Virus record (IMG/VR): IMGVR_UViG_3300036399_001297
Span: 1-64,000 of that record
Direction: 5' to 3' (one strand)
Length of the DNA stretch: 64,000 nt
DNA from: a virus
Of this stretch, positions 3,434 through 38,439 are shown in pieces. The notes beneath the pieces are model-generated. The model saw nothing but the letters and a program-made list of their open reading frames with translations, did no database searches and had not been told where the DNA came from. A program made the translations under genes and the position numbers. How positions within the stretch are numbered: position 1 is the first letter of the stretch; every line of letters begins with the position of its first letter.

Positions 3434-3687
3434 TTCATTTCCAAATTTTTATTCAAAGATTTGGATAGTTCATGATCTACTACTTTTAATACACAAGGAG
3501 CAGCATAATAAACAAAATTTTCTTTATCTCTTCCTGTATACAAACGACCAAAATTTTGCTTATTATTAATTTTTGGATAAGATTTCAAAGGTATTTGACT
3601 TATATCTAAAATGTTTAAATCTTTTTCTGGTATTTTTATAATAGTACCAGAAAAAACATTGAATATATGTATTAATTTATTTTCCAT
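3430..3687 (-). CDS. hypothetical protein
   Basis: 85-aa ORF tightly packed in a minus-strand operon. Confidence 0.6.
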   Translation of the reverse strand: MENKLIHIFNVFSGTIIKIPEKDLNILDISQIPLKSYPKINNKQNFGRLYTGRDKENFVYYAAPCVLKVVDHELSKSLNKNLEMN

Positions 3688-4030
3688 TTATAGTTAATAT
3701 TATATTAAAATATTTTGATTTTGCAACCTTTGGATTGAATAATGTAAAATATGGTTCAACGTCAAATAAATGTTTTTTTAGTGTAGATATTCTATAATCA
3801 AAATACATCAAATCGTCTTCATCGTGAGATTCTATACCAAATGGTATAGGTATCTCTATTTTATCCTTTGTTTTCTTTTCATTTTCTAGAATAAAAACTA
3901 AATAAAAATTTCTTTGGTAGAATAATACCAATTTACCTTTTTTTAAAATTTTATTTTTTAATTCGAACGATATATTTTTTTGCAATAATTTTTTGCAATT
4001 ATGTTCTATATATGTTCCGTTGATAAGCAT
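3677..4030 (-). CDS. hypothetical protein
   Basis: 117-aa ORF overlapping its neighbour in the operon. Confidence 0.6.
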   Translation of the reverse strand: MLINGTYIEHNCKKLLQKNISFELKNKILKKGKLVLFYQRNFYLVFILENEKKTKDKIEIPIPFGIESHDEDDLMYFDYRISTLKKHLFDVEPYFTLFNPKVAKSKYFNIILTINGK

Positions 4031-4034
4031 ATTT

Positions 4035-4433
4035 TTAACGATCCATGAATGATGCTTTTTCAGCGGGAGTCATTTTTGACAATACTAAGTTATAATACTG
4101 CCAAAATTTAGTACTATCTGGATAGGTTTTCAATGGAAGCATTGGCGTTCTTACTATATTTACGCTTTCACCGGGTACGGCTCTCCAGTCTTGCATTATT
4201 ATATCCCAAAAAAATTCCAAATTTTTAGGTCTTGGTTCGTATGCTCGCGGCAATGATGGTTTCTTGAAATGTAAAAGTTTAAGTCCTTCAGATGAATTCA
4301 ATAATTTACGATCTAAAGTCAACAACATTCTACGAGTTCTTGGTAATCTGTTTTTATCTCTACGTGTAAAAACAACCTCAACCACATGAGTTTGTGCTAT
4401 TTGATATAAACCTGATAATCCAATATTACCCAT
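4035..4433 (-). CDS. WYL_2/DUF2693-like SH3-fold phage protein
   Basis: VEVVFTRRD..RRMLLTL...FWDIIMQDWRAV resembles the V.FTK.DG..R.M..TL...WD....WRSF family pattern. Confidence 0.55.
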   Translation of the reverse strand: MGNIGLSGLYQIAQTHVVEVVFTRRDKNRLPRTRRMLLTLDRKLLNSSEGLKLLHFKKPSLPRAYEPRPKNLEFFWDIIMQDWRAVPGESVNIVRTPMLPLKTYPDSTKFWQYYNLVLSKMTPAEKASFMDR

Positions 4434-4815
4434 TTTTTGGTTTAGCTACTCCAAATATTCTAGCTTCATTCAAAAATACTAAATTTGAAATGTTATTTAA
4501 ACTAGCAACTTTAATACCTTTATCATTAGGAAAAATTACACAATCACCCTTTTTAACGGTTTGGCAATTCGGACCAGCTAGATGAACTTTTCCTACTCTC
4601 CAAGCAAAATTAACAACATCAACAGGAACCCAAATATTTCCACGTTTAATTTGTGTCCCGTCTGATGAAATATCTATATACTCTACCATTAGAATATCGT
4701 CTAATACATCTGTTAATTCCCATCCTTCCAGATTCAAATCAGAATTTTTATAACTTTCTAGTTCAACAAGCCCTTTATTTAAATTTTCTACGTTTTTTGG
4801 TATTAGATCAATCAT
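4426..4815 (-). CDS. groES: GroES-like co-chaperonin
   Basis: DDILMVE, GKVHLAGPNCQTVKKGDCVIF, FLNEARIFGV. Confidence 0.8.
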   Translation of the reverse strand: MIDLIPKNVENLNKGLVELESYKNSDLNLEGWELTDVLDDILMVEYIDISSDGTQIKRGNIWVPVDVVNFAWRVGKVHLAGPNCQTVKKGDCVIFPNDKGIKVASLNNISNLVFLNEARIFGVAKPKNG

Positions 4816-4821
4816 ATGTTT

Positions 4822-5205
4822 TTATTTATCTTCGGTTTTTATATTTTCAAGTAATTTATCGTAAATGTCTATTTCTCTTTTAGAAATTTCATATTCTTTC
4901 GCTAAAACATCTTCATTCGACTCTTCTTCATTTTTAAAACCTTTTTTCTTTATATATTCTATTTTTTTATGTATTTTAGGTAAAAGTGTTTTATAGAATT
5001 TACAATTATCTAAAAAATTTTCAGAATTGTCTATGCATTTGTCCCATCTATTAGTAGATACATTTATAATTTTACACACATCTAAATCGGACATAGACAA
5101 CCATCTATTTATAATATAATTAGATATATTATTTTCGTAAATAGGTTCTTTTTCTTTTTTCTTTAAAACCCAATCTAAAAATTCAAAAATATTACTAGTT
5201 TGCAT
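4822..5205 (-). CDS. 62: clamp loader small subunit, gp62-like
   Basis: IFEFLDWVLKKKE..YIINRWLSM..FYKTLLPK..LAKEYEISKRE follows the gp62 pattern of T4-like phages. Confidence 0.6.
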   Translation of the reverse strand: MQTSNIFEFLDWVLKKKEKEPIYENNISNYIINRWLSMSDLDVCKIINVSTNRWDKCIDNSENFLDNCKFYKTLLPKIHKKIEYIKKKGFKNEEESNEDVLAKEYEISKREIDIYDKLLENIKTEDK

Positions 5206-5863
5206 ACAATTTTTTAAAAAGTTTATTTGATACTTCCCAGTCAGTGCTTAACATCGAATCACCCAATCCATAGTGTACAACTCGTAATGGAAAAACACCA
5301 GCTTTAATTTTTAAATTATTTGCTCTTAAACAAAATGAAATGTCATAATGATGAAATTTAAAATTTTCATCCCATTGTAATTGTTTCTCAAGTGCCTTTT
5401 CGACATTTACTCCTATAAATAAACCGTCGAGTAATAATGCTCTGCTATCAGTAGGGCCAAAAACAGTTGTCCAAATTTTTTTATCTTTTGAATAATGTGC
5501 AACTTCTCCGACATAAGAATCTTGTTTACTCATTAAATGCCATGCACACATATTAGAATTTAGATCACATGCTTTAGTACCAGCTAAACCTATAATATCG
5601 TATTTTTCAAATGCCATTTGAATTTTTTCTATCGAAAAAAGATCGTCTATAAGTACATCATCGTGTATAAAAATTACATAATCGTTTTTATATTCTTCGG
5701 TTAAGAATCTATTATAAAGTTTAGGCAATCCTTCGGTATTATTTTCTATGATATTAACCTGATGCAACAATGAAGTTTTTTCTATAAAAAGTCCTAATGG
5801 TTTTGTTTTTAAGAAATTTTGTTTATTTTCTTGGGTGGCTACTACGAATTTAATGTTTTTCAT
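5195..5863 (-). CDS. GT-A fold glycosyltransferase (GT2-like)
   Basis: IFIHDDV (DxD-like), IIGLAG, LLDGLFI, WDENFKFHHYDISFC. Confidence 0.8.
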   Translation of the reverse strand: MKNIKFVVATQENKQNFLKTKPLGLFIEKTSLLHQVNIIENNTEGLPKLYNRFLTEEYKNDYVIFIHDDVLIDDLFSIEKIQMAFEKYDIIGLAGTKACDLNSNMCAWHLMSKQDSYVGEVAHYSKDKKIWTTVFGPTDSRALLLDGLFIGVNVEKALEKQLQWDENFKFHHYDISFCLRANNLKIKAGVFPLRVVHYGLGDSMLSTDWEVSNKLFKKLYAN

Positions 5864-5911
5864 GTTTTAAATATATATTTGTGCTGTTAAATGATAAGTA
5901 ATTTTATCATA

Positions 5912-6532
5912 ATGTCTAAAAAAGTCAAAAATAATAAAAGAAATATGAAAACATTAGTTCCACAAACATCTTTAAATGTAAAAAAACAAATAAAAAACGT
6001 ACTTGATGCGAATAGACGCAAAATGGATTTGAATGAATCTGATATTCCTTTTATTTCTAGTTTTGTTAAAGCTTTATTACAAGAACAGGGAGAGGATAAG
6101 GGTGAACCTATACCATCTACAAATGCTCCTGTTACTGAGCCATCAGAAACATCAGATGTTTTTTCGCCAGAAAAAAATAAAGAAGATTTCGAAAAATCTT
6201 TATCACAAGAAACCGATCCATCTAACTTTGAAACCGAAGGATTATCTCCTGAAATAACTCAACAAAACATAACCCAAATCAAAACATGGGCTGATAAATT
6301 AGATGAATTTGCAAACTTTTTAAATGATCCTGACAAGGGAACATCACTTCATAGAATATTGGCTGATTCCGACAGACCGGGTAGTTTGTTGAGGGGTGTG
6401 ACTCGTAAGGCTTCCGATTCTATTACTCGTATTGCTGGTGAAGTGGAAAAATTAAAGGAAGTTCTCAATACCTTTATCATAACCGCACCTAAGAAAATGC
6501 GTGACAATGAACAATCGGGTAGACCTTCCTAA
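5912..6532 (+). CDS. hypothetical late protein, possible head-internal/core protein
   Basis: TAAGTA at 5895-5900 favours the ATG at 5912 over 5891; acidic middle and coiled-coil C-terminus. Confidence 0.6.
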   Translation: MSKKVKNNKRNMKTLVPQTSLNVKKQIKNVLDANRRKMDLNESDIPFISSFVKALLQEQGEDKGEPIPSTNAPVTEPSETSDVFSPEKNKEDFEKSLSQETDPSNFETEGLSPEITQQNITQIKTWADKLDEFANFLNDPDKGTSLHRILADSDRPGSLLRGVTRKASDSITRIAGEVEKLKEVLNTFIITAPKKMRDNEQSGRPS

Positions 6533-6535
6533 TAT

Positions 6536-6895
6536 ATGAAATACGATCAACACTTATTAGAAAGTGCTTATAAAAAAATTTATTTAAAAGAAGAAATTTC
6601 TTCATTTGGAGACGGAGAATATGATCCTTTGCCGAATCCCCCGCAAAAATCCGAAGCCGAAATCGACCGTGAAATTGATGAAGAAGATGACCGTGCCGAA
6701 GTAACTGATTCTGTACAAGAAATAATAAGTAAATTGGGTGATCGGGTAAATACAGAACCTTTGTTAAAAAAACTTAATGATTTAAGTTCGGATAATATAG
6801 AAACTTTAATCAAAACTCTTAATGAAGAAGAACAGTGGACGTTAAAGGATAATCTTATTAGATTTTTATTTATGTTAAGAGGTTATCAATTTTAA
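6536..6895 (+). CDS. hypothetical acidic late protein
   Basis: 119 aa; N-terminus MKYDQHLLESAYKKIYLKEE. Confidence 0.6.
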   Translation: MKYDQHLLESAYKKIYLKEEISSFGDGEYDPLPNPPQKSEAEIDREIDEEDDRAEVTDSVQEIISKLGDRVNTEPLLKKLNDLSSDNIETLIKTLNEEEQWTLKDNLIRFLFMLRGYQF

Positions 6896-7842
6896 AACAA
6901 ATTTTTTAAAATAAAATCATAATCTATTTCATTTAAATCTTTATCCATAGCCATTTCATTAAAATCTTTATACTTTAAAGTTGGCCATTTAAATAATTTT
7001 TCAGAATCATTTAATAGTTTTAATACTTTCTGTTTGGTTTCGTCATCTTTGGTTACTGATATATTATCCAATACCCATATTTTTCTATGAAAAGGAAAAG
7101 TATTAAGTTGTTCTTTTTGGGTTTTTGTTAATGTTAATCCGCAAACAGCAACACCGTTTCTAACAAACATAGAATCTATCGGACCTTCAAATAAAAATAT
7201 ATAATCTATATCAGTATCTATGTTTTCTATTCCAAATATAGTCTTGTCATGACCCATTTTTCCCAAATATCTAGGTTCTGATCCATCTAATGCTCTAGTT
7301 TGATAAAAGACTATTTTATTAGACATGTCATAAAATGGTATAATCAATCTATTTTTATGAACCTTATCGGTAAAACTTATATAATAACTTTTTGATCTAT
7401 TTATGGCGGTATCAAGTTTTCTTTCCTTTATATAATCCAATGCTTTATTAAAAAATTTATTATTTTTATAATATTTTTGTTGTATAGGATCTAATATATT
7501 GATCGAATCGTAAGGTAAAGAAGGAATAATCAATTCCTTTTTAATTTCTACGTTTTTAATTTCAGATGAAAAATCATCATTCTTATTTTCTAATAATATT
7601 TCATCATAAGATTGTCCGGTAATATTAGAAAGCCAATTTATAGCAGACCATGATTTTTGACAATTGAAACAGTATAATGATTGAGTTTTCGGATAATAAA
7701 AAAGTCTTTTCTTTTTACCCCAAGAATTACCTTCTCTACATATCGGACAAGATGCATTATAATTCCCATCATATTTATTAAATGATGGATAGCCCGAATA
7801 GGTATAAAAAGCATTCAGTATATAATTTTCACTTAATGTCAT
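6892..7842 (-). CDS. 61: DNA primase, gp61-like
   Basis: Zn ribbon CPICREG...CFNC, RLIIPFYD, YQTRAL, TOPRIM FEGPIDSMF, KDFNEM. Confidence 0.92.
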   Translation of the reverse strand: MTLSENYILNAFYTYSGYPSFNKYDGNYNASCPICREGNSWGKKKRLFYYPKTQSLYCFNCQKSWSAINWLSNITGQSYDEILLENKNDDFSSEIKNVEIKKELIIPSLPYDSINILDPIQQKYYKNNKFFNKALDYIKERKLDTAINRSKSYYISFTDKVHKNRLIIPFYDMSNKIVFYQTRALDGSEPRYLGKMGHDKTIFGIENIDTDIDYIFLFEGPIDSMFVRNGVAVCGLTLTKTQKEQLNTFPFHRKIWVLDNISVTKDDETKQKVLKLLNDSEKLFKWPTLKYKDFNEMAMDKDLNEIDYDFILKNLF

Positions 7843-7871
7843 TGAGTTGGTATTATGACATTAAGTGAAAA
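7826..7871. repeat. 17-bp perfect inverted repeat covering the primase start codon and promoter spacer
   Basis: ttttcacttaatgtcat (7826-7842) / atgacattaagtgaaaa (7855-7871), 12-nt loop. Confidence 0.9.
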
Positions 7872-7879
7872 AATGTCAA
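7852..7879 (-). promoter_or_regulatory. sigma70-type promoter of the primase gene
   Basis: TTGACA-16 nt-CATAAT-9 nt-ATG. Confidence 0.65.
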
Positions 7880-7882
7880 CTT

Positions 7883-8671
7883 TTATTTATCGAAGTCGTT
7901 ATAATTATCGTCTAACATTCCTTTTTCGCCCCAAGGATCATCCATATCTATACCCAAATCCTTAGCGGTTTCCGGATCAATATCATGAGAAATTGAACTA
8001 TCCGTATTCATAGGATCAATATCTCCTTCTTCGGTATCGGTTCTAAATGCTTCCATCCCATCGTCTTTACTGTCAAATGATTCCGGTGCTTCTAATTCAT
8101 CTAATGACGGGTCTTTAACAGCAATTAATTTACCATTTTCTTCGCCCAATTGACCATCTGAAATCATTTTATTTATGATCTTGTCAACTTCTTCTTCTTC
8201 ATGACCGTATTTAGAAATGTATGCTTTAACTTCTTCTTTTGTAGCAGCTTCATCATCAGATTCGATGATATAATTATAAATATGTTCTTCTACGCTTGAG
8301 ATCGATTTTGTTTGTTCTTCTTGATTGGCTGCATTTTCATCAAATTCTACAAAATATGAATGATCCGGTGTATTTAAAACGTGCCAGAATCTTTTGAATA
8401 ACAATTTTCTTTCGTCTGGTCCTAAGCCTTGATTCAAGAAACCATGATTTATGGTGCTTTCCCATTCAGGTTTGGTTTCTGGTAAATTTCCGGTGGATTG
8501 TACGTGTTGTAATGCTTGTAGATAGAAATTTTTAAAAGGGCTTTTTAGATTTTTTAAATCTTCGGTCAATTTATCTAAGTTTAAAGTAAATTTAGGGTAT
8601 ACTTTTTTCTTTCTTCCTTCGTTGACTGTTACGACTTTTTCAAAAAGAATGTCAAAATTTGTTTTTTTCAT
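7883..8671 (-). CDS. hypothetical late protein with acidic tail
   Basis: 262 aa; TATAAATA just upstream; N-terminus MKKTNFDILFEKVVTVNE. Confidence 0.65.
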   Translation of the reverse strand: MKKTNFDILFEKVVTVNEGRKKKVYPKFTLNLDKLTEDLKNLKSPFKNFYLQALQHVQSTGNLPETKPEWESTINHGFLNQGLGPDERKLLFKRFWHVLNTPDHSYFVEFDENAANQEEQTKSISSVEEHIYNYIIESDDEAATKEEVKAYISKYGHEEEEVDKIINKMISDGQLGEENGKLIAVKDPSLDELEAPESFDSKDDGMEAFRTDTEEGDIDPMNTDSSISHDIDPETAKDLGIDMDDPWGEKGMLDDNYNDFDK

Positions 8672-31066: not shown

Positions 31067-31090
31067 CGGTCATAAAAAATATTGTATACT
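31063..31090 (+). promoter_or_regulatory. sigma70-type promoter of the DNA polymerase gene
   Basis: TTGACG-16 nt-TATACT-6 nt-ATG(31097). Confidence 0.7.
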
Positions 31091-31096
31091 ATTTCG

Positions 31097-33658
31097 ATGG
31101 GGTTTCGCAATATTTTTTATAACAATAAAACAAATTCTATTCATCTGTGGACGTGGGATGAAAACGGAAATCGGACAGAATTCGATCAAACCGTAGAACC
31201 TTATTTTTTTATAGAATCTAATGATGCTAATGACGGTGTTTCTATTTTTAAATCAAATCTAAAAAAGATAAAATTTGAAAATAATTATGATAGAAAGAAT
31301 TACTTGGAATCATCGCCAATTAAAAAAATATATCACAATCTACCAATAGAACAGCAATATCTATTAGATACATTCAAAACTGGTATTAAAGATGAACACC
31401 CCTTAAAAATTTTCTATCTTGATATCGAAACTTATGCAACCAATAGAAAATTTTCCACACCAGAAGAAGCATCAGATCCCATAAATCTCATAACTATATA
31501 TGATAGTTTGTCTAAAAAATTTTATACATGGGGATTAAAACATTCTTATTATACAAAGGATGATGATGTTATATACACAAAATGCGATTCTGAAAAAGAA
31601 TTATTAGTTTTATTTTTAAAATTTTGGCGGTCAGATTATCCAGATGTGGTTACTGGATGGAACTCTCATGGGTATGATATTCCTTATATTATAAACAGAA
31701 TCGAAAAAGTGTTGGGTGAGGATAAAAATAAAAAACTTTCTCCTGTAAATAAAATATGGCTTAAACCCAAAGCATCCGTAAATCTAAAAGGACAAGCAAA
31801 AGATAGGTGGATAATATATGGAATATCCCATCTAGACTATATGGACGTTTATCAAACCTTTGCTTTAGGGGATAGAGAATCGTATTCTTTGAATTATATT
31901 TCCGAATACGAATTAAAGGAACAGAAAGTGGCCTTTAATTCCGTATCATTGTCAGATTTAGCCGATACAGATTGGCATACCTTCGTAGATTATAATATCC
32001 AAGACGTAAAACTTCTTATTAAACTTGAAGAAAAGTTAAAATATTTAAAATTAGTTAAAAATTTAGCATACAAAGGATTTATTCCATTCGAAAGAGCGAT
32101 GGCAAAGGTGCAACTAATTACAGGAGCAGTAGCATTTCAAGCTCTCAAAGATGGTATGTATATACCAACATACAATATACAAAACGAAAAGGGAAAGTTT
32201 GAAGGCGGGTATGTCAAAGAACCCGTACCCGGTCTGTATGAAAATATCGTAACATATGACGCTAATTCTTTGTATCCGAATACAATTATAACCTTAAACA
32301 TATCACCCGAAACTAAAGTGGGTAAAATTACAAAAATAGAAAATAATAATTACCATTTATTACTTTCAAATAATAAAGAGGTTGTTATATCAAAAGAAAA
32401 ATACGATAAATTAATAACAAAAGAAAACCTAGCTGTATCTAAATCCAATGTACTATATACTCAAAAATTTAAAGGAGTAATACCAAAATTTGTAGACAAT
32501 CTTTATGATCTTAGAGTAAAAGCTAAAAAAGAACAAGGTAAATACGAAAAATTGTATTCAAAAGAAACCGATATAAATTTAAAAGCAAAATACGAAGAAC
32601 TTATTACCGATAATAAAACGTTATCGGAAGTTTATAAAGTGGTCTTAAATTCTTGTTACGGTGTATTCAGTCAAAAATATTCACCTTTATTTGATCTAGA
32701 CCATGCCGAATCCATAACTTTAACAGGACAATCTGCGGTTAAACAAGGCGCTCAAATAATGTTTGATAAATTTATATCAGAAGGAATCGATTGTAAATTT
32801 GATGATATAATTAGATATTCTGACACTGACAGTATATTTATAGAATTTACAAAAATACTGAAAGATAGAAATATAAATCTAGCAAAAAATAATTTGATCG
32901 AAAAAGATTCAAACACCTTGATAGAAAATTTTGGAGATTATCTAAACGCAGAAATACAAGAATGGGCTAAAAAAGAATTAAATTCATTAGACCCTCGATA
33001 TGTTTTCAAAAGAGAAAAAATATGTGATATTGCGGTTCTACAAAAGAAAAAATTTTACATATTACATATTTTGGATAGTGAAGGGATTGCTAAAAATGAA
33101 TTTCTATATAAAGGAATCGAAGTAGCCAAATCTATCATGTCAAAAGAAGTTAAAAGTCTTATAAAAAATAGTATAGAAACAGCAATTCTTTCTAAGAATA
33201 AAGAAACATCGATGAGAATTTTCAATGAAAGTTTTGAAAAATTTCTGAATTTCAACGAAGAATTACTATCGGTTAGAAAAAAAGTTAACGATTATGATAA
33301 AGGAGAAAGGGGATATGTTGATGGTAAATACGCACTAGGTACACCAAATCATACTAAGGCCGCTATAAATTATAACGAACTTCTCAAAAAATTAGAAATT
33401 GATAACAAATATTTAAAAATTGGAAACGGCCAAAAATTTAAATTTTTCTATTGCGAAAGAAATAAATATGGATATTCAAATATGGGATTTTTTACAGATT
33501 ATCCAGAAGAATTTAAGACTTATATAAAACCAGATTATAAATTAATGTTTGAAAAAACTATAGCTCCTGTTATCGGAAGAGTTTATTCTATTATCGGATG
33601 GCCAAAACCTAAAGTTGGATTCGATTATCATACAAACCTATTAGACCTCTTCTCTTAG
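31097..33658 (+). CDS. 43: family B DNA polymerase gp43
   Basis: ExoI LDIET, GWNSHGYDIPY, YNIQDV, YDANSLYP, KVVLNSCYG, YSDTDS; start reassigned to the ATG at 31097. Confidence 0.96.
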   Translation: MGFRNIFYNNKTNSIHLWTWDENGNRTEFDQTVEPYFFIESNDANDGVSIFKSNLKKIKFENNYDRKNYLESSPIKKIYHNLPIEQQYLLDTFKTGIKDEHPLKIFYLDIETYATNRKFSTPEEASDPINLITIYDSLSKKFYTWGLKHSYYTKDDDVIYTKCDSEKELLVLFLKFWRSDYPDVVTGWNSHGYDIPYIINRIEKVLGEDKNKKLSPVNKIWLKPKASVNLKGQAKDRWIIYGISHLDYMDVYQTFALGDRESYSLNYISEYELKEQKVAFNSVSLSDLADTDWHTFVDYNIQDVKLLIKLEEKLKYLKLVKNLAYKGFIPFERAMAKVQLITGAVAFQALKDGMYIPTYNIQNEKGKFEGGYVKEPVPGLYENIVTYDANSLYPNTIITLNISPETKVGKITKIENNNYHLLLSNNKEVVISKEKYDKLITKENLAVSKSNVLYTQKFKGVIPKFVDNLYDLRVKAKKEQGKYEKLYSKETDINLKAKYEELITDNKTLSEVYKVVLNSCYGVFSQKYSPLFDLDHAESITLTGQSAVKQGAQIMFDKFISEGIDCKFDDIIRYSDTDSIFIEFTKILKDRNINLAKNNLIEKDSNTLIENFGDYLNAEIQEWAKKELNSLDPRYVFKREKICDIAVLQKKKFYILHILDSEGIAKNEFLYKGIEVAKSIMSKEVKSLIKNSIETAILSKNKETSMRIFNESFEKFLNFNEELLSVRKKVNDYDKGERGYVDGKYALGTPNHTKAAINYNELLKKLEIDNKYLKIGNGQKFKFFYCERNKYGYSNMGFFTDYPEEFKTYIKPDYKLMFEKTIAPVIGRVYSIIGWPKPKVGFDYHTNLLDLFS

Positions 33659-33921: not shown

Positions 33922-34320
33922 ATGGAAAACACTACAGAAACAGAAACAGAAACAAAAACAAAACTTATAACATTCCTCGATCCTATTGGCAGAACCATCT
34001 TAGGTGAACAAGAACAATGTGAAACACAATTTGCGGTAAAAAACCCCGTAATTCTTCATGTCGTATCTGATAATCAAGGTCGCATGTCTGTTCAACTATT
34101 GCCTCTATTCTTTAGAGAATTTTTGGCCGATAAATCTGAAGATGTTATTTTTTATTACAACTGTTCTAATATTACAAAAACAAATCTAGAAAGTTTGGAT
34201 TTCAGACTTCAGGCTCAATATAATCAACTCTTTAATAAGAGCAATGTGTTCGTTCCTCCTAGTGCTGAAACGGTAAATACCGGAAAATCAGAAAAGGTGG
34301 TAAATTTATTCGAAGAATAG
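33922..34320 (+). CDS. hypothetical protein
   Basis: 132 aa with its own upstream TTGAAT promoter-like site and a downstream hairpin. Confidence 0.65.
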   Translation: MENTTETETETKTKLITFLDPIGRTILGEQEQCETQFAVKNPVILHVVSDNQGRMSVQLLPLFFREFLADKSEDVIFYYNCSNITKTNLESLDFRLQAQYNQLFNKSNVFVPPSAETVNTGKSEKVVNLFEE

Positions 34321-34341
34321 TTTATATAAAAACTACAAAAG

Positions 34342-34376
34342 AAATCCCGAAATGTTTTGACATTTCGGGATTTTTT
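34342..34376 (+). terminator. intrinsic terminator overlapping the uvsX promoter
   Basis: 14-bp stem aaatcccgaaatgt/acatttcgggattt plus T-run; contains TTGACA (34357-34362), with TATTAT at 34379-34384 and ATG at 34391. Confidence 0.8.
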
Positions 34377-34390
34377 GTTATTATATCCAT

Positions 34391-35242
34391 ATGGCTAAAA
34401 CTAAAAAAGAAAACCTAGAAAACGAACCCCTCGCTGACATTGACGATGCTTTTAAAATCCTAGATGATTTAAATCCAGACGCAGCATTTCTAAATGAGAA
34501 TACCCTTTCCACAGTTAAGGAATGGATAGACACTGGTTGTATGGCTTTAAACGCTATAATTTCGGGTTCGTTGTATGGCGGTATACCTATGGGTAGAATT
34601 ACAGGATTTGCTGGACCCCAAGCATGTGGAAAAACTTTAATGGTTAATAAAATAATGGCTCATGCTCAAAAGAAGGGTATGAGAGTAGCTTATTTTGATA
34701 CTGAAAATGCTCTTGATCCTGATACAGCATCAAATTTAGGATGCGATCCATCAAAAATTAAACATTGTCCAACAGAGGTAATCGAAGAATGTAGAAATCA
34801 AATTGTAAAATTTTTGAAAAGCATCATCGATAATAATCTACAGGGAAAAGTTTTGTTGGTTATAGATTCTTTGGGAAATCTTATATCCTCTAGAGAAGCA
34901 AAAGTAATCGAAGACGGAAAAGATTCGGCAGATATGGGTGCGAGGGCTGTTGCGTGTTTATGTCCAAATACACTTATACACACCATAGACGGAGTTAAAA
35001 AGTTATCCGATTTAAAAATAGGAGATTTTGTTTTGACTCATTTAGGTAGATATAAAATGATAACAAATAAGTGGGAAACAAACCATAAAGAATATATTAA
35101 AATAAAAACAAAAAATTCTTATATTTTATTATCAATAAATCATAAACTTTTAGTAAAAAGAAATTCAAAACTATCATATATAGAGGCCCAAAATATTAAA
35201 CCTACTGATAAATTATTAAAGTTTAACGAGCAAAATCATTAA
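34391..35242 (+). CDS. uvsX: RecA-like recombinase UvsX, N-terminal part (188 aa) fused to a split-intein N-fragment
   Basis: IDTGCMALN, GPQACGKT, FDTENA, VIDSLGNL, ADMGARAVA, then intein sequence CLCPNT. Confidence 0.93.
   Translation: MAKTKKENLENEPLADIDDAFKILDDLNPDAAFLNENTLSTVKEWIDTGCMALNAIISGSLYGGIPMGRITGFAGPQACGKTLMVNKIMAHAQKKGMRVAYFDTENALDPDTASNLGCDPSKIKHCPTEVIEECRNQIVKFLKSIIDNNLQGKVLLVIDSLGNLISSREAKVIEDGKDSADMGARAVACLCPNTLIHTIDGVKKLSDLKIGDFVLTHLGRYKMITNKWETNHKEYIKIKTKNSYILLSINHKLLVKRNSKLSYIEAQNIKPTDKLLKFNEQNH
34955..35242 (+). mobile_element. split intein N-fragment (95 aa) of UvsX
   Basis: block A CLCPNTLIHT, KKLSDLKIGDFVLT, block B SINHKLLV, IEAQNIKPTDKL, then stop. Confidence 0.92.
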
Positions 35243-35273
35243 AATGTAGAGCAAAATACATAAGTATGAATAT

Positions 35274-36380
35274 ATGGAAAATATATTCATAAATTATTTT
35301 AAAAAGAATAAAATAAAATTATCAGAAAAATCATGGAATAATTTAACTCTTATAAAAAATATAAGAGTTGAAAAATTTTTATCAATACCTAAAAACGAAA
35401 CTAGATATAAATGGTTTTGTGATTATGACGGAACATCAACAGCTTTAAATTTTGTAAGAAAAAATAGCAAAAAAATAATGATAGAAAAACTTTGTTATAT
35501 ATGTGAAAGTAGTTTAGGTGAACAAACTTTATCAAAACAATTTTCTTTTATATATTCAAGTAATAACGAAAATCTCAAACCATCATCACATTTAAATAAA
35601 ATGTGTTTTAATTGCGCCACAAGAGAAAATTCTAAAAACGGATTAGAGAAAAGAAAAAAAACATGCTTAGATAAATACGGCATAGAATATAAAATTTTAG
35701 ATTCTGACGTAATTAAAAATAGAAAAAAAATTTTAACCGATAGATACGGTGAAAACTATAAAGAATTTTTTTGGGAAAAAGCAAAAAACACTTATATAAG
35801 AAAACTTGGCGTTTCTCATAATACAAAAATTCCAGAAGTTCTGGAAAAAATGGTAAAAAATAGATTAGAAACATTAAAAACCTTATCTCCGGAAAAATGG
35901 AAAGAATGGTCTGATAATAAAATAAAGGCATATAACAAAGAAGGATCTAGTGGATTATTTGGCAGAAATGATTTTGATGGAAATAGTAAGATAGCTAAGG
36001 ATTTTATATCTAAACTTATAAATGTATTAAATCTGCAAGAGAACGAATATATTACAGAAAAACCACATTCGAAATATAATATTGATCTTTATATAAAAGA
36101 TTTGGTTATAGTAGAATTTTATGGTGATTTTTGGCACGCAAATCCAGAAATATATAAACCAGATGACATTATAGGTGTAAGTTACAACACAATTACCGCG
36201 AAAGAGAAATGGGAAAAAGACGCTTACCGAATAGAAAAATTAAAAAACGAATTAAATCTTCCGGTTATAATTGTATGGGAAAAATCATATAAAGAAAATA
36301 AAGATAAAATAATACTTGATATAATCAAAAATATTAATATAATAAAAACCAACAAAGAAATTAAAACATATGTTTATTGA
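35274..36380 (+). CDS. free-standing homing endonuclease, Vsr-like PD-(D/E)xK type
   Basis: C-terminal YNIDLY..IVEFYGDFWHANP..WEKDAYR..VIIVWE; N-terminal KKTCLDKYG-type DNA-binding repeats; TAAGTA at 35261-35266. Confidence 0.85.
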   Translation: MENIFINYFKKNKIKLSEKSWNNLTLIKNIRVEKFLSIPKNETRYKWFCDYDGTSTALNFVRKNSKKIMIEKLCYICESSLGEQTLSKQFSFIYSSNNENLKPSSHLNKMCFNCATRENSKNGLEKRKKTCLDKYGIEYKILDSDVIKNRKKILTDRYGENYKEFFWEKAKNTYIRKLGVSHNTKIPEVLEKMVKNRLETLKTLSPEKWKEWSDNKIKAYNKEGSSGLFGRNDFDGNSKIAKDFISKLINVLNLQENEYITEKPHSKYNIDLYIKDLVIVEFYGDFWHANPEIYKPDDIIGVSYNTITAKEKWEKDAYRIEKLKNELNLPVIIVWEKSYKENKDKIILDIIKNINIIKTNKEIKTYVY

Positions 36381-36507
36381 AAATAATTACGAAGAAATTG
36401 ATATACTAGAAATCACAAAAATAGAAGAAGAAAAAACTTTAATAGACATTTCTGTTGAAGAAGATGAGACATTTTGTATTACTGATGAAAGAATTATAAG
36501 TCATAAT
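36370..36507 (+). mobile_element. split intein C-fragment (46 aa) of UvsX
   Basis: block F LIDISVEEDETFC, block G IISHN followed by Cys+1. Confidence 0.93.
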
Positions 36508-37041
36508 TGTAAGTCTATGCTTAGAGCGATTACACATACAGCAGCAAAGGCTAATTGTCCTGTTGTTTTCACTAATCATATTTACGACAATCCTGGTGCG
36601 ATGTATCCAACCTTGATTAAAAACCAATCGGGTGGTTCTGGTCCTCTGTATATGAGTTCGGTACTGGTTCAGATGTCTACAAAGCAGGAACGAGTCGGAA
36701 AATCTGATAATAAAAATTCAAATGATGATGTCACACCTTTATCCAAAGATGTTAACGGATTAACAATGAGAGCATTGACTACAAAAAATAGATTCGTTCC
36801 TCCATTTTTGGAATGTGAAATGTATCTAAATTTTAGAACCGGACTTTCTAAATATTCAGGATTATTGGAAATGGCAGAAGGTTACGGTGTAATAGCAAAA
36901 CAAGGTCATAGATACGCTCTTGGAGAAGAAGTTTTAGGGTTTTATAAAGATTGGAGAGAAGATGAAATCGTCTGGAATAAGATCTTACCAAAACTTGAAG
37001 AGAAATTGCAAACCGAATTGAAGTTTAAAAAAGAAGATTAA
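36370..37041 (+). CDS. uvsX: split-intein C-fragment fused to the UvsX C-terminal part (177 aa)
   Basis: intein ends IISHN; extein CKSMLRAIT, VFTNHIY, SGGSGPLY, TTKNRFVPPF. Confidence 0.93.
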   Translation: MFIENNYEEIDILEITKIEEEKTLIDISVEEDETFCITDERIISHNCKSMLRAITHTAAKANCPVVFTNHIYDNPGAMYPTLIKNQSGGSGPLYMSSVLVQMSTKQERVGKSDNKNSNDDVTPLSKDVNGLTMRALTTKNRFVPPFLECEMYLNFRTGLSKYSGLLEMAEGYGVIAKQGHRYALGEEVLGFYKDWREDEIVWNKILPKLEEKLQTELKFKKED

Positions 37042-37047
37042 TCATTA

Positions 37048-38439
37048 ATGCAACCAGCATCTCTATCTTTCGATAAGAAATTATTTGAGAAAGTTTTTAT
37101 ATATAATTGTCTAAAGGATTCTTTATATTTAGAGACTGTAATTGATCACACTAAACCATCATTCTTTCAAAACGAAAATATTAGAACGGTTTATAGCGTT
37201 ATACATTCGTATTTCTGTTTACATAAAAAAATACCAAATTCAACAGAATTAAATCTTCATGTTACGGATGATGATACTAGAAAATCTTTAAAAGATGTGA
37301 TTTTGTCGTTTAAAGATATTGATAAAACCTATGATAAAGATGTTTTATTAAATATAACCGAAAAATTTTTAAAGGAAAAAACAGTACTTCAAACTGTTCA
37401 GAAAACATCAGTAGAAATACAATCGGGAGATTTCGATACTTCTAAAATTTTTAAAGAATTTGAGAAGGCTTGCAATATATCTTTAGTACATGATCACGGT
37501 ATAGATTATTTAGAAAATATAGATAAACATTGTGAAGATTTGTTAAAAACCTTTGAAACTATATCAACCGGATGGTCTTGGTTGGATGATAAATTAGGCG
37601 GCGGTTTTATGAAAAACGGAAAATCTTTATATCTGTTTTTCGGTCAAACTAATGTTGGAAAATCTATTTTTTTGGGAAATATAGCAACAAATGTACTAGA
37701 GCAAAATAAAACTGTTGTGTTAATTTCGATGGAAATGTCGGAAGAAGTATATGCAAAAAGAATCAGTGCTTGTATTTCTGACATACCGATGAGTGATTTA
37801 AAAGAAGAAATCCCAAGTTTAAAAACATATCTAAATGACTATAAAAATAATCACGAAAAATCAAAATTGATCATTAAAGAATTTCCACCTAAAAGTGTCA
37901 CTCCTACACATATTAAAACTTATATACATAGATTGGTGAGAAAAGGAATTAAACCAGAATTAATAGTAATCGACTACCTATCTCTTATTTCAGCCGGAAC
38001 AAAAGGATTAAATAGTTACGAATCGCAAAAAGAAGTAGCCGAACAAATAAGAAGTCTTTCTTATGAATTCGAATGCAGTATAGTCACAGCAGTACAAACA
38101 AATCGATCTGGTTATGGAGACAACCAACCCGAATTGGAATCTACATCAGAATCAATGGGAATTGCTCATACGGTAGATGCTCAAATATCTATATGGACAA
38201 GTGAAGAGGATAAAGATTTACATGTAATCCATATGGGGGTAGTCAAAAACCGATTTGGACCTAGAGATTGTCAAACTATTTTAGAAATAGATTACCCAAC
38301 ATTAAAATTAAAGGAGCCAGATGATGTAATTGATGATCTAGCGGTAAAAACTAGACCGATCAAAAAAAATATTGAGTCTTCTGATAATTTAAAAATTAAA
38401 AGTACATTAGATATTATACAGAGTTTAGACAATGATTGA
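37048..38439 (+). CDS. 41: replicative DnaB-like helicase gp41
   Basis: GQTNVGKS, ISMEMSE, IIKEFP, VIDYL, TAVQTNRSG, SESMG, KNRFG. Confidence 0.94.
   Translation: MQPASLSFDKKLFEKVFIYNCLKDSLYLETVIDHTKPSFFQNENIRTVYSVIHSYFCLHKKIPNSTELNLHVTDDDTRKSLKDVILSFKDIDKTYDKDVLLNITEKFLKEKTVLQTVQKTSVEIQSGDFDTSKIFKEFEKACNISLVHDHGIDYLENIDKHCEDLLKTFETISTGWSWLDDKLGGGFMKNGKSLYLFFGQTNVGKSIFLGNIATNVLEQNKTVVLISMEMSEEVYAKRISACISDIPMSDLKEEIPSLKTYLNDYKNNHEKSKLIIKEFPPKSVTPTHIKTYIHRLVRKGIKPELIVIDYLSLISAGTKGLNSYESQKEVAEQIRSLSYEFECSIVTAVQTNRSGYGDNQPELESTSESMGIAHTVDAQISIWTSEEDKDLHVIHMGVVKNRFGPRDCQTILEIDYPTLKLKEPDDVIDDLAVKTRPIKKNIESSDNLKIKSTLDIIQSLDND

Follow-up and report, generated by a model that had tools for sequence, protein, structure and literature searches.

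How can a phage obtain a single recombinase from a gene that its genome carries in separate pieces? The question is raised by positions 34391-37041 of the window, by which we mean the whole stretch of viral DNA analysed (64,000 nucleotides of an IMG/VR virus record, from an uncultured lake phage). Here, the two parts of a uvsX gene are separated by intein halves and by a further open reading frame (ORF). The reading that we favor, with a probability of about 0.85, is that of a fractured uvsX, in which one RecA-family recombinase is made as two polypeptides bearing the halves of a split intein, with the gene of an EDxHD endonuclease lying between theirs. What we observe is the anatomy of the locus, together with conserved catalytic residues, purifying selection, folds assigned by comparison and, at the population level, a cassette that stays near-identical where the alleles around it have diverged.

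Anatomy of the locus

The features of the locus are listed below, each with its coordinates in the window and its strand.

34339-34376, plus strand: terminator-like hairpin just upstream of uvsX, overlapping a sigma-70-like promoter (consensus scan only)
34357-34384, plus strand: sigma-70-like promoter upstream of uvsX, 11 of 12 matches with a TG extension (consensus scan only)
34391-34954, plus strand: UvsX N-extein, 188 aa, with Walker A motif GPQACGKT, ending in ADMGARAVA
34955-35242, plus strand: IntN, 95 aa and a TAA stop, with Cys1 in CLCPNT and block B S-x-x-H (LSINH)
35265-35291, plus strand: 11-bp hairpin over the endonuclease AUG (35274-35276), from minimum free energy and shuffles
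35274-36380, plus strand: putative free-standing homing endonuclease, 368 aa, with a Vsr-like/EDxHD domain at residues 230-368
36316-36343, plus strand: sigma-70-like promoter TTGATA-16-TATAAT in the 3' end of the endonuclease gene, 11 of 12 matches, low confidence
36370-36507, plus strand: IntC, 46 aa, ending in ISHN, its ATG within the endonuclease ORF by 11 nt
36508-37041, plus strand: UvsX C-extein, 177 aa and a stop, beginning with the +1 Cys (CKSMLRAIT)

ORF1 (34391-35242, plus strand, 283 aa) thus consists of the UvsX N-extein and IntN, and ORF3 (36370-37041, 223 aa) of IntC and the C-extein, with the endonuclease ORF (35274-36380) between them; the two exteins sum to 365 aa (188 + 177). 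A preliminary description of this DNA had given the same coordinates and lengths (188, 95, 368 and 46 aa, and 365 aa once spliced), all of which proved correct on re-check. The cassette has a GC content of 17-27% vs 32-37% in the exteins, which is a weak sign of foreign origin because neighboring phage genes also lie at 25-30%. The same three-ORF layout recurs in four diverged lineages, on independent viral contigs.

Three adjoining ORFs could be what a sequencing or assembly error had made of one contiguous intein-endonuclease fusion in uvsX, and the endonuclease and ORF3 frames do overlap, so that one indel could in principle join those two. Against this, the three ORFs of the window each lie in a different frame, with stops between ORF1 and the endonuclease. 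The frame of ORF1 is closed at 35242 and that of the endonuclease opens only at 35250, so that fusion by a single indel is impossible, and the one closes before the other opens in all four lineages. Moreover, the L064, L065 and L141 assemblies are 99.96-100% identical, and lake-water contigs from other studies (X3 records 3 and 6; X4 records 12 and 15) carry the junctions of the IntN stop with the endonuclease start and of the endonuclease stop with the IntC start without a single difference. The junction of N-extein and IntN (34954/34955) is bridged by none of the run contigs listed. An error of this kind, which the preliminary description had named as a ground for refutation, is in our view hardly credible.

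The UvsX host protein and the break point

The PHROG_97 UvsX profile aligns through its positions 1-197 with residues 1-188 of ORF1 (E = 5.4e-36) and through its positions 198-257 with residues 47-108 of ORF3. Because the profile continues across the break, the split is no chance resemblance. The N-extein matches Pfam RecA with 56.5 bits (cut-off 27), and the N- and C-exteins are 90% and 92% identical, respectively, to those of the intein-free relative P0009. Another intein-free relative, P0018, matches the phage UvsX structure 9gbg (E = 1.7e-38) and 3io5 (E = 3.8e-20); among Escherichia coli RecA chains, its best single-copy match is 1n03 (E = 3.4e-18). On the RecA core, the insertion site of the window uvsX lies just after loop L1.

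Intein-free alleles in related phages, a search for which the preliminary description had proposed, are numerous. The gene is unbroken across the insertion point in 60 of 60 such loci, and the +1 position is occupied by Leu (56 loci), Tyr (2) or Phe (2), and by Cys in none. Intein-free relatives are 365-382 aa long, which matches the 365 aa predicted for the spliced product. An intact copy elsewhere had been another concern; the 83-kb record to which the window belongs, which is ~39% complete, holds a single uvsX, and two complete relatives (~210 kb) have one each. A second match to UvsX in relative G001 is a 30%-identical ATPase (E = 1e-5).

Between the window and its counterpart L063, dN/dS is 0.13 for the N-extein, 0.11 for IntN and 0.17 for the endonuclease, and for IntC pN is 0.12 vs a pS of 0.82. 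As dS is saturated in most pairs, the claim for those pairs is confined to pN lying far below pS, as it does in both exteins and cassette. These values bear on whether the locus might be a decaying uvsX pseudogene left by a selfish insertion, with recombination provided by the host RecA or a different gene. The incomplete record leaves room for another recombinase elsewhere; however, the exteins are full length and close to their intact relatives, both they and the cassette are under such constraint, the layout has been kept in four lineages and the complete relatives have a single uvsX. We consider decay very improbable.

The split intein

The IntN sequences of the other lineages are 54-74% identical to that of the window, and the alignment of the four retains 46 invariant columns, including C1, S60 and H63. 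In the corresponding IntC alignment, D26 (in the IDI motif), H45 and N46 are invariant and are followed by C+1. Taken protein by protein, Cys1 and the block-B Ser/His are present in 11 of 11 N-part proteins examined, and the terminal His-Asn and the +1 Cys in 6 of 6 C-part proteins. The residues of a class 1 intein are therefore in place: C1, S60-x-x-H63 (with Ser for the usual Thr), H45-N46 and C+1. The window IntN is alone in having Ile adjoining the block-B His, where the other 10 copies have Lys.

The best solved match of the IntN family profile is the gp41-1 split intein (6QAZ, E = 2.4e-5), and the IntC profile found no intein among solved structures, only chance-level rows. The Pfam scores of the window intein halves all fall below cut-off (Hint_2 at 22 bits against 28.4, Hint at 17.9 against 29.7, and Intein_splicing on IntC at 13.7 against 35.8, E = 0.057), low scores being expected of half-domains. 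The predicted IntN-IntC complex scores 0.68, and the best of three controls 0.00. Of 157 solved complexes, 116 attain this mark, as do 2 of 215 mismatched pairs; since split-intein structures are among the solved complexes, the result may reflect resemblance to these. Between model runs, at least 98% of contacts are the same, and the partner has a pLDDT of at least 75. From its residues, we are confident that the intein is a canonical class 1 split intein (Cys1/His-Asn/Cys+1) of 95 + 46 aa, which would be expected to splice.

The prediction of a complex bears on association and not on chemistry, and the halves could have ceased to splice and act as a dimerization module only, yielding a non-covalent two-chain UvsX. 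Phage enzymes that are made in fragments and come together with no splicing have been described (PMC3045599; Dassa et al., 2009, PMC2677866). A two-chain UvsX would resemble the NrdA of Aeromonas phage Aeh1, which a homing endonuclease interrupts and whose parts join up with no intein involved. However, Cys1, the block-B His, His-Asn and Cys+1 are invariant down to ~50% identity, and the conserved Leu gives way to the +1 Cys solely in cassette-bearing alleles, a change that makes little sense without selection on the chemistry of splicing. We hold a non-splicing pair of chains to be improbable and retain the fractured, trans-splicing uvsX.

The endonuclease

The preliminary description had called the product of the middle ORF Vsr-like, and fold comparison agrees. 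In the endonuclease model (pLDDT 78.7), the C-terminal domain superimposes on Vsr (1cw0) with Z 12.5 and rmsd 3.5 over 124 aligned residues; the match to I-Bth0305I (3r3p) has Z 10.6 and rmsd 2.8 over 98 aligned residues (98/98). The same two structures top the Foldseek list (E = 8.7e-3 and 3e-2, respectively). A sequence search against solved structures gave no match, and the identification came from fold comparison only. Across an alignment of 17 sequences, D271, E281, D285, H288 and D316 are invariant, together with others, in the pattern ...EFYGDFWH...D...; by this family alignment, E281, D285, H288 and D316 would be the Glu-Asp-His-Asp set of EDxHD enzymes.

A putative role in DNA binding falls to the N-terminal ~230 aa, in which four Cys are invariant and which match Pfam DUF7487 (27.4 bits; cut-off 27), the only Pfam match in the endonuclease, with no NUMOD motif found. 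Modeled alone, residues 1-230 have a pLDDT of 70.3, and no fold can be assigned to them, as their best match is a short helical hairpin of 42 residues (Z 5.0).

Signals for expression

The overlap of the endonuclease ORF with ORF3 is kept in all four lineages (11, 11, 38 and 8 nt). The hairpin at 35265-35291 has a minimum free energy of -14 kcal/mol (z = -3.58), and none of 200 shuffles was as stable; L063, L064 and L066 have hairpins of other sequence over the endonuclease AUG (z from -3.0 to -4.7). From the overlap, the preliminary description had proposed that translation of ORF3 is coupled to that of the endonuclease. Such coupling is plausible, given that the overlap persists in four lineages, but it is probably not obligatory, as a variant lacking the endonuclease start keeps both intein halves.

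The promoter-like region at 36316-36343 lies 27 nt upstream of the IntC ATG and is also protein-coding; L063 has TTGACA-16-TATAAT at the aligned place. Sigma-70-like matches in this AT-rich DNA number 28 against 22 expected, and the consensus may not be that of the host. The T4 late promoter TATAAATA does not occur within 34000-37100, the nearest copies being at 32835 (minus strand) and 38456 (plus strand). Over the window, it was found 34 times vs 24.8 expected, a count matched by 4 of 100 shuffles, so that enrichment is not clear. Upstream of the hairpin, L063 carries TATAAATA at the position that aligns with CATAAGTA of the window. We make no claim of a late promoter here.

Proposed mechanism and probable spread of the cassette

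In the mechanism that we propose, the endonuclease gene would occupy the usual endonuclease-insertion point of the intein. The 283-aa and 223-aa products would associate through IntN and IntC and trans-splice to give a 365-aa UvsX, in which a junction Cys, where Leu is usual, would be the only scar. When infections are mixed, intein-free uvsX would be cut by the endonuclease near the codons for DMGARAV(A/S)-L-KSML, and recombinational repair would copy IntN, endonuclease and IntC, and the -1 and +1 codons with them, into the cut allele. By covering the endonuclease start codon, the hairpin may limit endonuclease translation, and the 3' end of the endonuclease gene would supply the start of the downstream half-gene. 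We infer splicing, DNA cleavage, target site and regulation in this scheme from the observations given above. In T4, intron homing depends on UvsX. The earlier suggestion, that the element entered the very recombinase on which its homing relies, is a fair one, but the situation is not unprecedented, given this dependence in T4, the cleavage of uvsX by T4 SegA and the presence of I-Bth0305I in a phage recA intron.

Several alleles suggest movement. The IntN sequences of the window, P0001 and P0002 are 99-100% identical, whereas their N-exteins are 80-88% identical; endonuclease P0121 is 99.2% identical, and P0161 combines an IntC of 100% identity with a C-extein of 88%. On an N-extein tree of 121 rows, the 11 fractured alleles need seven state changes, of which at least five are forced by supported branches. 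The N-extein of P0002 equals that of the intein-free P0073 except at the -1 residue, where Ser is replaced by Ala. An endonuclease-deleted allele (L067/L095) lacks the endonuclease start and ~276 codons and keeps both intein halves. A metagenome scan with the IntN alignment found just two uvsX-type loci, L141, which is nearly identical to L064, and L142, whose contig is as long as that of L066.

From these comparisons, the cassette is probably still homing. The argument rests on protein clusters, with co-conversion read at the protein level, and extein recombination around a static cassette would yield a similar pattern. A bolder reading, which we put forward as doubtful, is that in lake phage populations the cassette has been caught in mid-sweep, with filled, empty and endonuclease-deleted alleles side by side and with P0073 and P0002 as a before-and-after pair that differs only in the cassette and the flanking residue. 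On this reading, a selfish gene may also govern the enzyme on which repair of its own breaks depends. In all four lineages, ORF3 begins within the endonuclease ORF and a hairpin covers the endonuclease start, and expression of the parasite would then determine when, and in what amount, active UvsX is made.

Comparison with known systems

The arrangement itself is not new, having been described in 2009, and our locus agrees feature by feature with the fractured-gene reading that the preliminary description had taken from that work. In the portion of Dassa et al. (2009; PMC2677866) drawn on here, the fractured genes (for example gp41-1, NrdJ-1 and IMPDH-1) are likewise conserved phage DNA-metabolism genes broken once, with IntN at the end of the upstream ORF, IntC at the beginning of the downstream one and, between the halves, a free-standing endonuclease of Vsr-like (or GIY-YIG) type. 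The endonuclease overlaps the downstream ORF by 6-69 bp in those loci vs 8-38 nt here, both have a hairpin at the endonuclease start, and the endonuclease-less gp41-7 has its counterpart in L067/L095. The difference lies in the host genes, which in that portion are gp41, NrdA, NrdJ, IMPDH, DnaE, DNA ligase, terminase and one unknown protein; UvsX appears there only as the neighbor of a fractured gp41. For this layout, both the host gene and the insertion site found here are new.

I-Bth0305I, the EDxHD prototype, also has a C-terminal Vsr-like catalytic domain, a separate N-terminal region and a RecA-family phage target. Its carrier, by contrast, is a group I intron in recA of Bacillus phage 0305phi8-36 and not a split intein (PMC3239194, as far as drawn on here). 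Its target TTcGgtgatcCaAA translates as Phe-Gly-Asp-Pro and is placed in the L2 region, so that the site differs from that of the window. I-Bth0305I is also much smaller than the 368-aa endonuclease of the window; its catalytic domain, as solved, extends to residue 263.

T4 SegA, a free-standing GIY-YIG enzyme encoded next to uvsX, is likewise a phage homing endonuclease that targets uvsX, which it cleaves (PMC2988022), but its gene is intergenic and without an intein, and uvsX stays whole. Separately, free-standing genes of Vsr-like type lie immediately upstream of an intact uvsX in L085, L113, L114 and L117-L119.

The original list of VidaL-type inteins of Thiel et al. 2014 reportedly included entries named after UvsX. 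These atypically split inteins (PDB 6VGV/6VGW) are, like ours, naturally split and from lake viral metagenomes, but they are split at another position, with an IntN of 16 aa (PMC13014065) vs the canonical 95 + 46 aa here. An apparent likeness to Bacillus phages of the SalinJah type was discarded; the matches, to query residues 1-245, are to an ordinary 415-aa RecA without an intein, and the alignment had overrun.

The inteins of Mycobacterium RecA and Pyrococcus RadA share a RecA-family host and differ in being single-chain, many with LAGLIDADG, and in residing in cellular genes. We take their insertion points to be different from the window site. Contiguous RecA inteins are common, with 56 listed (PMC4760082), so that the earlier remark that no RecA-family case had been characterized holds for the fractured form but not for RecA inteins at large.

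A blastn search of the whole locus against GenBank phages gave no match. GenBank already contains undescribed fractured uvsX/recA genes at another site. The uvsX of Vibrio phage vB_VmeM-32 (KU160494.1) and the recA of Prevotella Lak megaphages (e.g. MK250024.1) are likewise split by IntN, an ORF and IntC. Their sites (after ...SGG and before TGAVYS, and after ...AMG and before SGIVYN) differ from ours and align with the RecA L2 region, and the intervening ORF is SegG-like by annotation in vB_VmeM-32 and larger in Lak. The words intein, RecA, UvsX, homing and split do not occur in the vB_VmeM-32 paper (PMC6483233), and our literature search returned no description of a fractured uvsX or recA, though the supplementary tables of Dassa et al. 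(2009) might list more loci.

UvsX, at a site just after its DNA-binding loop L1, is hereby added to the hosts of fractured genes. The locus comes with a natural series of empty, filled and endonuclease-deleted sites and with one cassette shared by alleles that differ by 12-20%, which opens the homing cycle of an EDxHD endonuclease, and its co-conversion tract, to direct tests from lake metagenomes. The gp41-1 intein is among the fastest split inteins known, with a half-time of 5 s at 37 °C (PMC13014065), and the gp41-1-related 95 + 46 aa intein described here, with its several natural variants, is a candidate for the protein-ligation toolbox.

Organization of the uvsX locus

The uvsX gene of the window is a genuine, selectively maintained fractured gene, with a cassette of IntN, endonuclease and IntC lying between the two parts of the recombinase. 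Its neighbours are a family-B DNA polymerase and a DnaB/gp41-like helicase, and near-identical DNA is present in lake-water metagenomes from several studies.

31082-33658: family-B DNA polymerase
33922-34320: 132-aa ORF without a PHROG match
34391-35242, + strand: ORF1, 283 aa; UvsX N-extein (188 aa, ending DMGARAVA) and IntN (95 aa, from CLCPNT)
35274-36380, + strand: free-standing endonuclease gene, 368 aa
36370-37041, + strand: ORF3, 223 aa; IntC (46 aa, ending ISHN) and UvsX C-extein (177 aa, from CKSMLRAIT)
37048-38439: DnaB/gp41-like helicase

The preliminary description had claimed a uvsX fractured by a split intein and a Vsr-like free-standing endonuclease, and all its coordinates and lengths of ORFs and intein parts were correct when rechecked. 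ORF1, the endonuclease gene and ORF3 occupy three different frames of one strand, with the ORF3 ATG placed 11 nt within the endonuclease ORF. Since the frame of ORF1 ends at 35242 and the endonuclease frame starts only at 35250, a fusion of the two by a single indel is impossible. Both the IntN-stop/endonuclease-start and the endonuclease-stop/IntC-start junctions show 0 differences in contigs from runs of other studies (X3 records 3 and 6, X4 records 12 and 15, jointly for both junctions). Positions 1-197 of the PHROG UvsX profile fall on ORF1 and 198-257 on ORF3, gapless across the break, and ORF1 matches Pfam RecA at 56.5 bits (cut-off 27). The IMG/VR virus record to which the window belongs (83,004 bases, ~39% complete) contains no second uvsX, and two complete relatives (~210 kb) carry one copy each.

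Uninterrupted alleles and the insertion point

The best 120 protein clusters matching ORF1 comprise 110 recombinases without an interruption, most of them 362-383 aa long (one partial, 311 aa), and 10 N-extein plus IntN proteins of 278-284 aa. At the DNA level, uvsX runs continuously through DMG..(A/S)-X-KSM in 60 of the 61 viral loci fetched with ORF1, where X is Leu (56), Tyr (2) or Phe (2) and never Cys. The +1 residue is Cys in every cassette-bearing allele; the +1 nucleophile therefore moves together with the cassette, and the predicted spliced UvsX would be set apart from its relatives by a single residue.

Aligned through an intein-free cluster (P0018), the break maps within SHMGLAARM/MSQAMRKL of Escherichia coli RecA (the slash marks the break), which we take, from the RecA numbering, to be just past loop L1. 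One lineage (locus L066, 3088-3115 and 4648-4662; cluster P0111) has the junction GQRAK/C-IKSMM, compared with GQRAKA/C in cluster P0112 and ARAVA/C-KSML in the window, so that the intein there sits one residue earlier with total loop length unchanged. In Dassa et al. (2009; PMC2677866), the NrdA and NrdJ inteins are likewise offset by one residue.

The split intein

The five-part layout is common to four lineages with DNA (the window, L063, the L064 group and L066), the others having 71-55% N-extein identity and 74-54% IntN identity to the window. All four keep Cys1, the block-B Ser-x-x-His, the terminal His-Asn and the +1 Cys unchanged. Between the window and L063, dN/dS is 0.13 for the N-extein, 0.11 for IntN and 0.17 for the endonuclease; in other pairwise comparisons dS is saturated, yet pN lies far below pS. 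Residue 62 of the window IntN (35138-35140), two residues ahead of the block-B His, is Ile, and Lys in the other 10 copies examined (LSINH versus LSKNH/LSKEH, LSPNH/MSKNH).

A profile built from the four IntN sequences matched the gp41-1 split intein (6QAZ) at E 2.4e-5; the IntC profile matched no solved intein, and curated Pfam HINT models matched the halves below threshold only. An IntN-IntC complex model scored 0.68 (best of 3 controls, 0.00), passing a mark that 116 of 157 solved complexes attain, as against 2 of 215 mismatched pairs; contact agreement between runs is at least 98%, and partner pLDDT at least 75. The model supports IntN-IntC binding, and because split-intein complexes have already been solved, its pass may reflect mere likeness to known complexes.

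The endonuclease

In the AlphaFold model of the endonuclease (pLDDT 78.7), residues 230-368 superpose on E. coli Vsr (1cw0; Z 12.5, rmsd 3.5, 124 aligned) and on the I-Bth0305I catalytic domain (3r3p; Z 10.6, rmsd 2.8, 98 aligned), which also top the Foldseek list. On this modelled fold, the protein is a member of the Vsr-like family, later named EDxHD. Invariant in 17 aligned homologues are D271, E281, G284, D285, W287, H288, N290, P291, D316, W335 and E336. Such endonucleases occupy half of the fractured loci of Dassa et al. (PMC2677866), and also recA introns (PMC3239194). Protein splicing by the split intein and DNA cleavage by the endonuclease are thus far putative activities.

The N-terminal 230 residues (35274-35963) contain four invariant Cys (C74, C77, C111 and C114, A6 alignment numbering), Pfam DUF7487 at threshold and repeated K/R-Y-G helices; no match to residues 1-230 was found when the model was compared with solved structures. 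This region may represent a DNA-binding module of EDxHD endonucleases that has so far gone undescribed.

Predicted expression signals and a deleted variant

We infer several expression signals from the nucleotide sequence of the locus, namely a hairpin, an overlap and a possible promoter. A stable hairpin (35265-35291, z -3.58) covers the endonuclease AUG, which is covered by hairpins of other sequence in L063, L064 and L066, in agreement with the translational control of phage homing endonucleases described by Dassa et al. (PMC2677866). The endonuclease-stop/IntC-start overlap is preserved in 4/4 lineages. Within the endonuclease 3' end, a sigma-70-like match (36316-36343), for which L063 has a perfect counterpart, is a candidate promoter, offered only as a lead.

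Two assemblies, L067 (1-386) and L095 (3441-3628), carry an 876-nt deletion relative to L064 3442-4317, flanked by a 9-nt repeat. The IntN tail, the spacer and ~276 endonuclease codons are lost. Since both intein halves are kept and the sequence on either side is 100% identical to L064, endonuclease-plus and endonuclease-minus forms co-exist. The deleted variant argues that ORF3 could be translated independently.

Apparent mobility of the cassette

The cassette is apparently still mobile. IntN is 99-100% identical among the window and clusters P0001 and P0002, whose N-exteins are just 80-88% identical and have closer intein-free relatives (P0009, 90%; P0011, 97%; P0073, 99.5%). The window endonuclease and cluster P0121 share 99.2% identity; in P0161, IntC is 100% and the C-extein 88% identical to that of the window. 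The N-exteins of P0002 and intein-free P0073 differ solely at the residue adjoining the intein; by this comparison, they are a before-and-after pair for cassette arrival. A quick maximum-likelihood analysis of 121 N-exteins, with all rows retained, including several on long branches, gave a tree on which the 11 fractured rows require 7 state changes, at least 5 of them forced by supported branches. In older lineages cassette divergence follows extein divergence, and vertical descent therefore happens as well.

Comparison with known systems

Inteins in RecA are common in contiguous form (PMC4760082), and T4 homing requires UvsX, whose gene is targeted by SegA (PMC2988022). In L085 (3501-4726), L113, L114 and L117-L119, an intact, more distant uvsX (36-38% identity) is immediately preceded by a short Vsr-like endonuclease gene; this placement is intergenic and 'SegA-like', with the nuclease family and adjoining gene as in the window. 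In L089 (3000-4421), a more distant IntN-like stretch (35% identity) precedes a related endonuclease (26% identity); no match to uvsX lies near the stretch, and the locus could be the fractured gene for a different host protein. A 2014 list reportedly includes 'VidaL' inteins, which are atypically split and take their names from UvsX.

Our literature searches found no paper on a fractured uvsX or recA; public records already hold further cases. The cultured T4-like Vibrio phage vB_VmeM-32 (KU160494.1; 2189-2926, 3013-4980) has a uvsX N-part, a Seg-like endonuclease and a HintC-annotated C-part, at a different site, in the RecA L2 region; the paper on this phage (PMC6483233) does not mention the arrangement. 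The annotation divides the DNA polymerase of this phage among several pieces, and one of these begins with an IntC-like sequence ending NHNFFANECLVHN/C. Lak megaphages also have a fractured recA, at a site unlike that of the window: in Prevotella phage Lak-B5 (MK250024.1, ~3560-7900), recA is split by an IntN (QAMG/CLRPDE) and an IntC (IINHN/SGIVYN). The long ORF between these halves contains in-frame TAG codons, which may be recoded stops.

The fractured hosts listed in the text of Dassa et al. (PMC2677866) are gp41, NrdA, NrdJ, IMPDH, DnaE, ligase, terminase and one unknown, with UvsX appearing there merely as a neighbour. The fractured uvsX adds a new host gene and a new site to the kind described in 2009.
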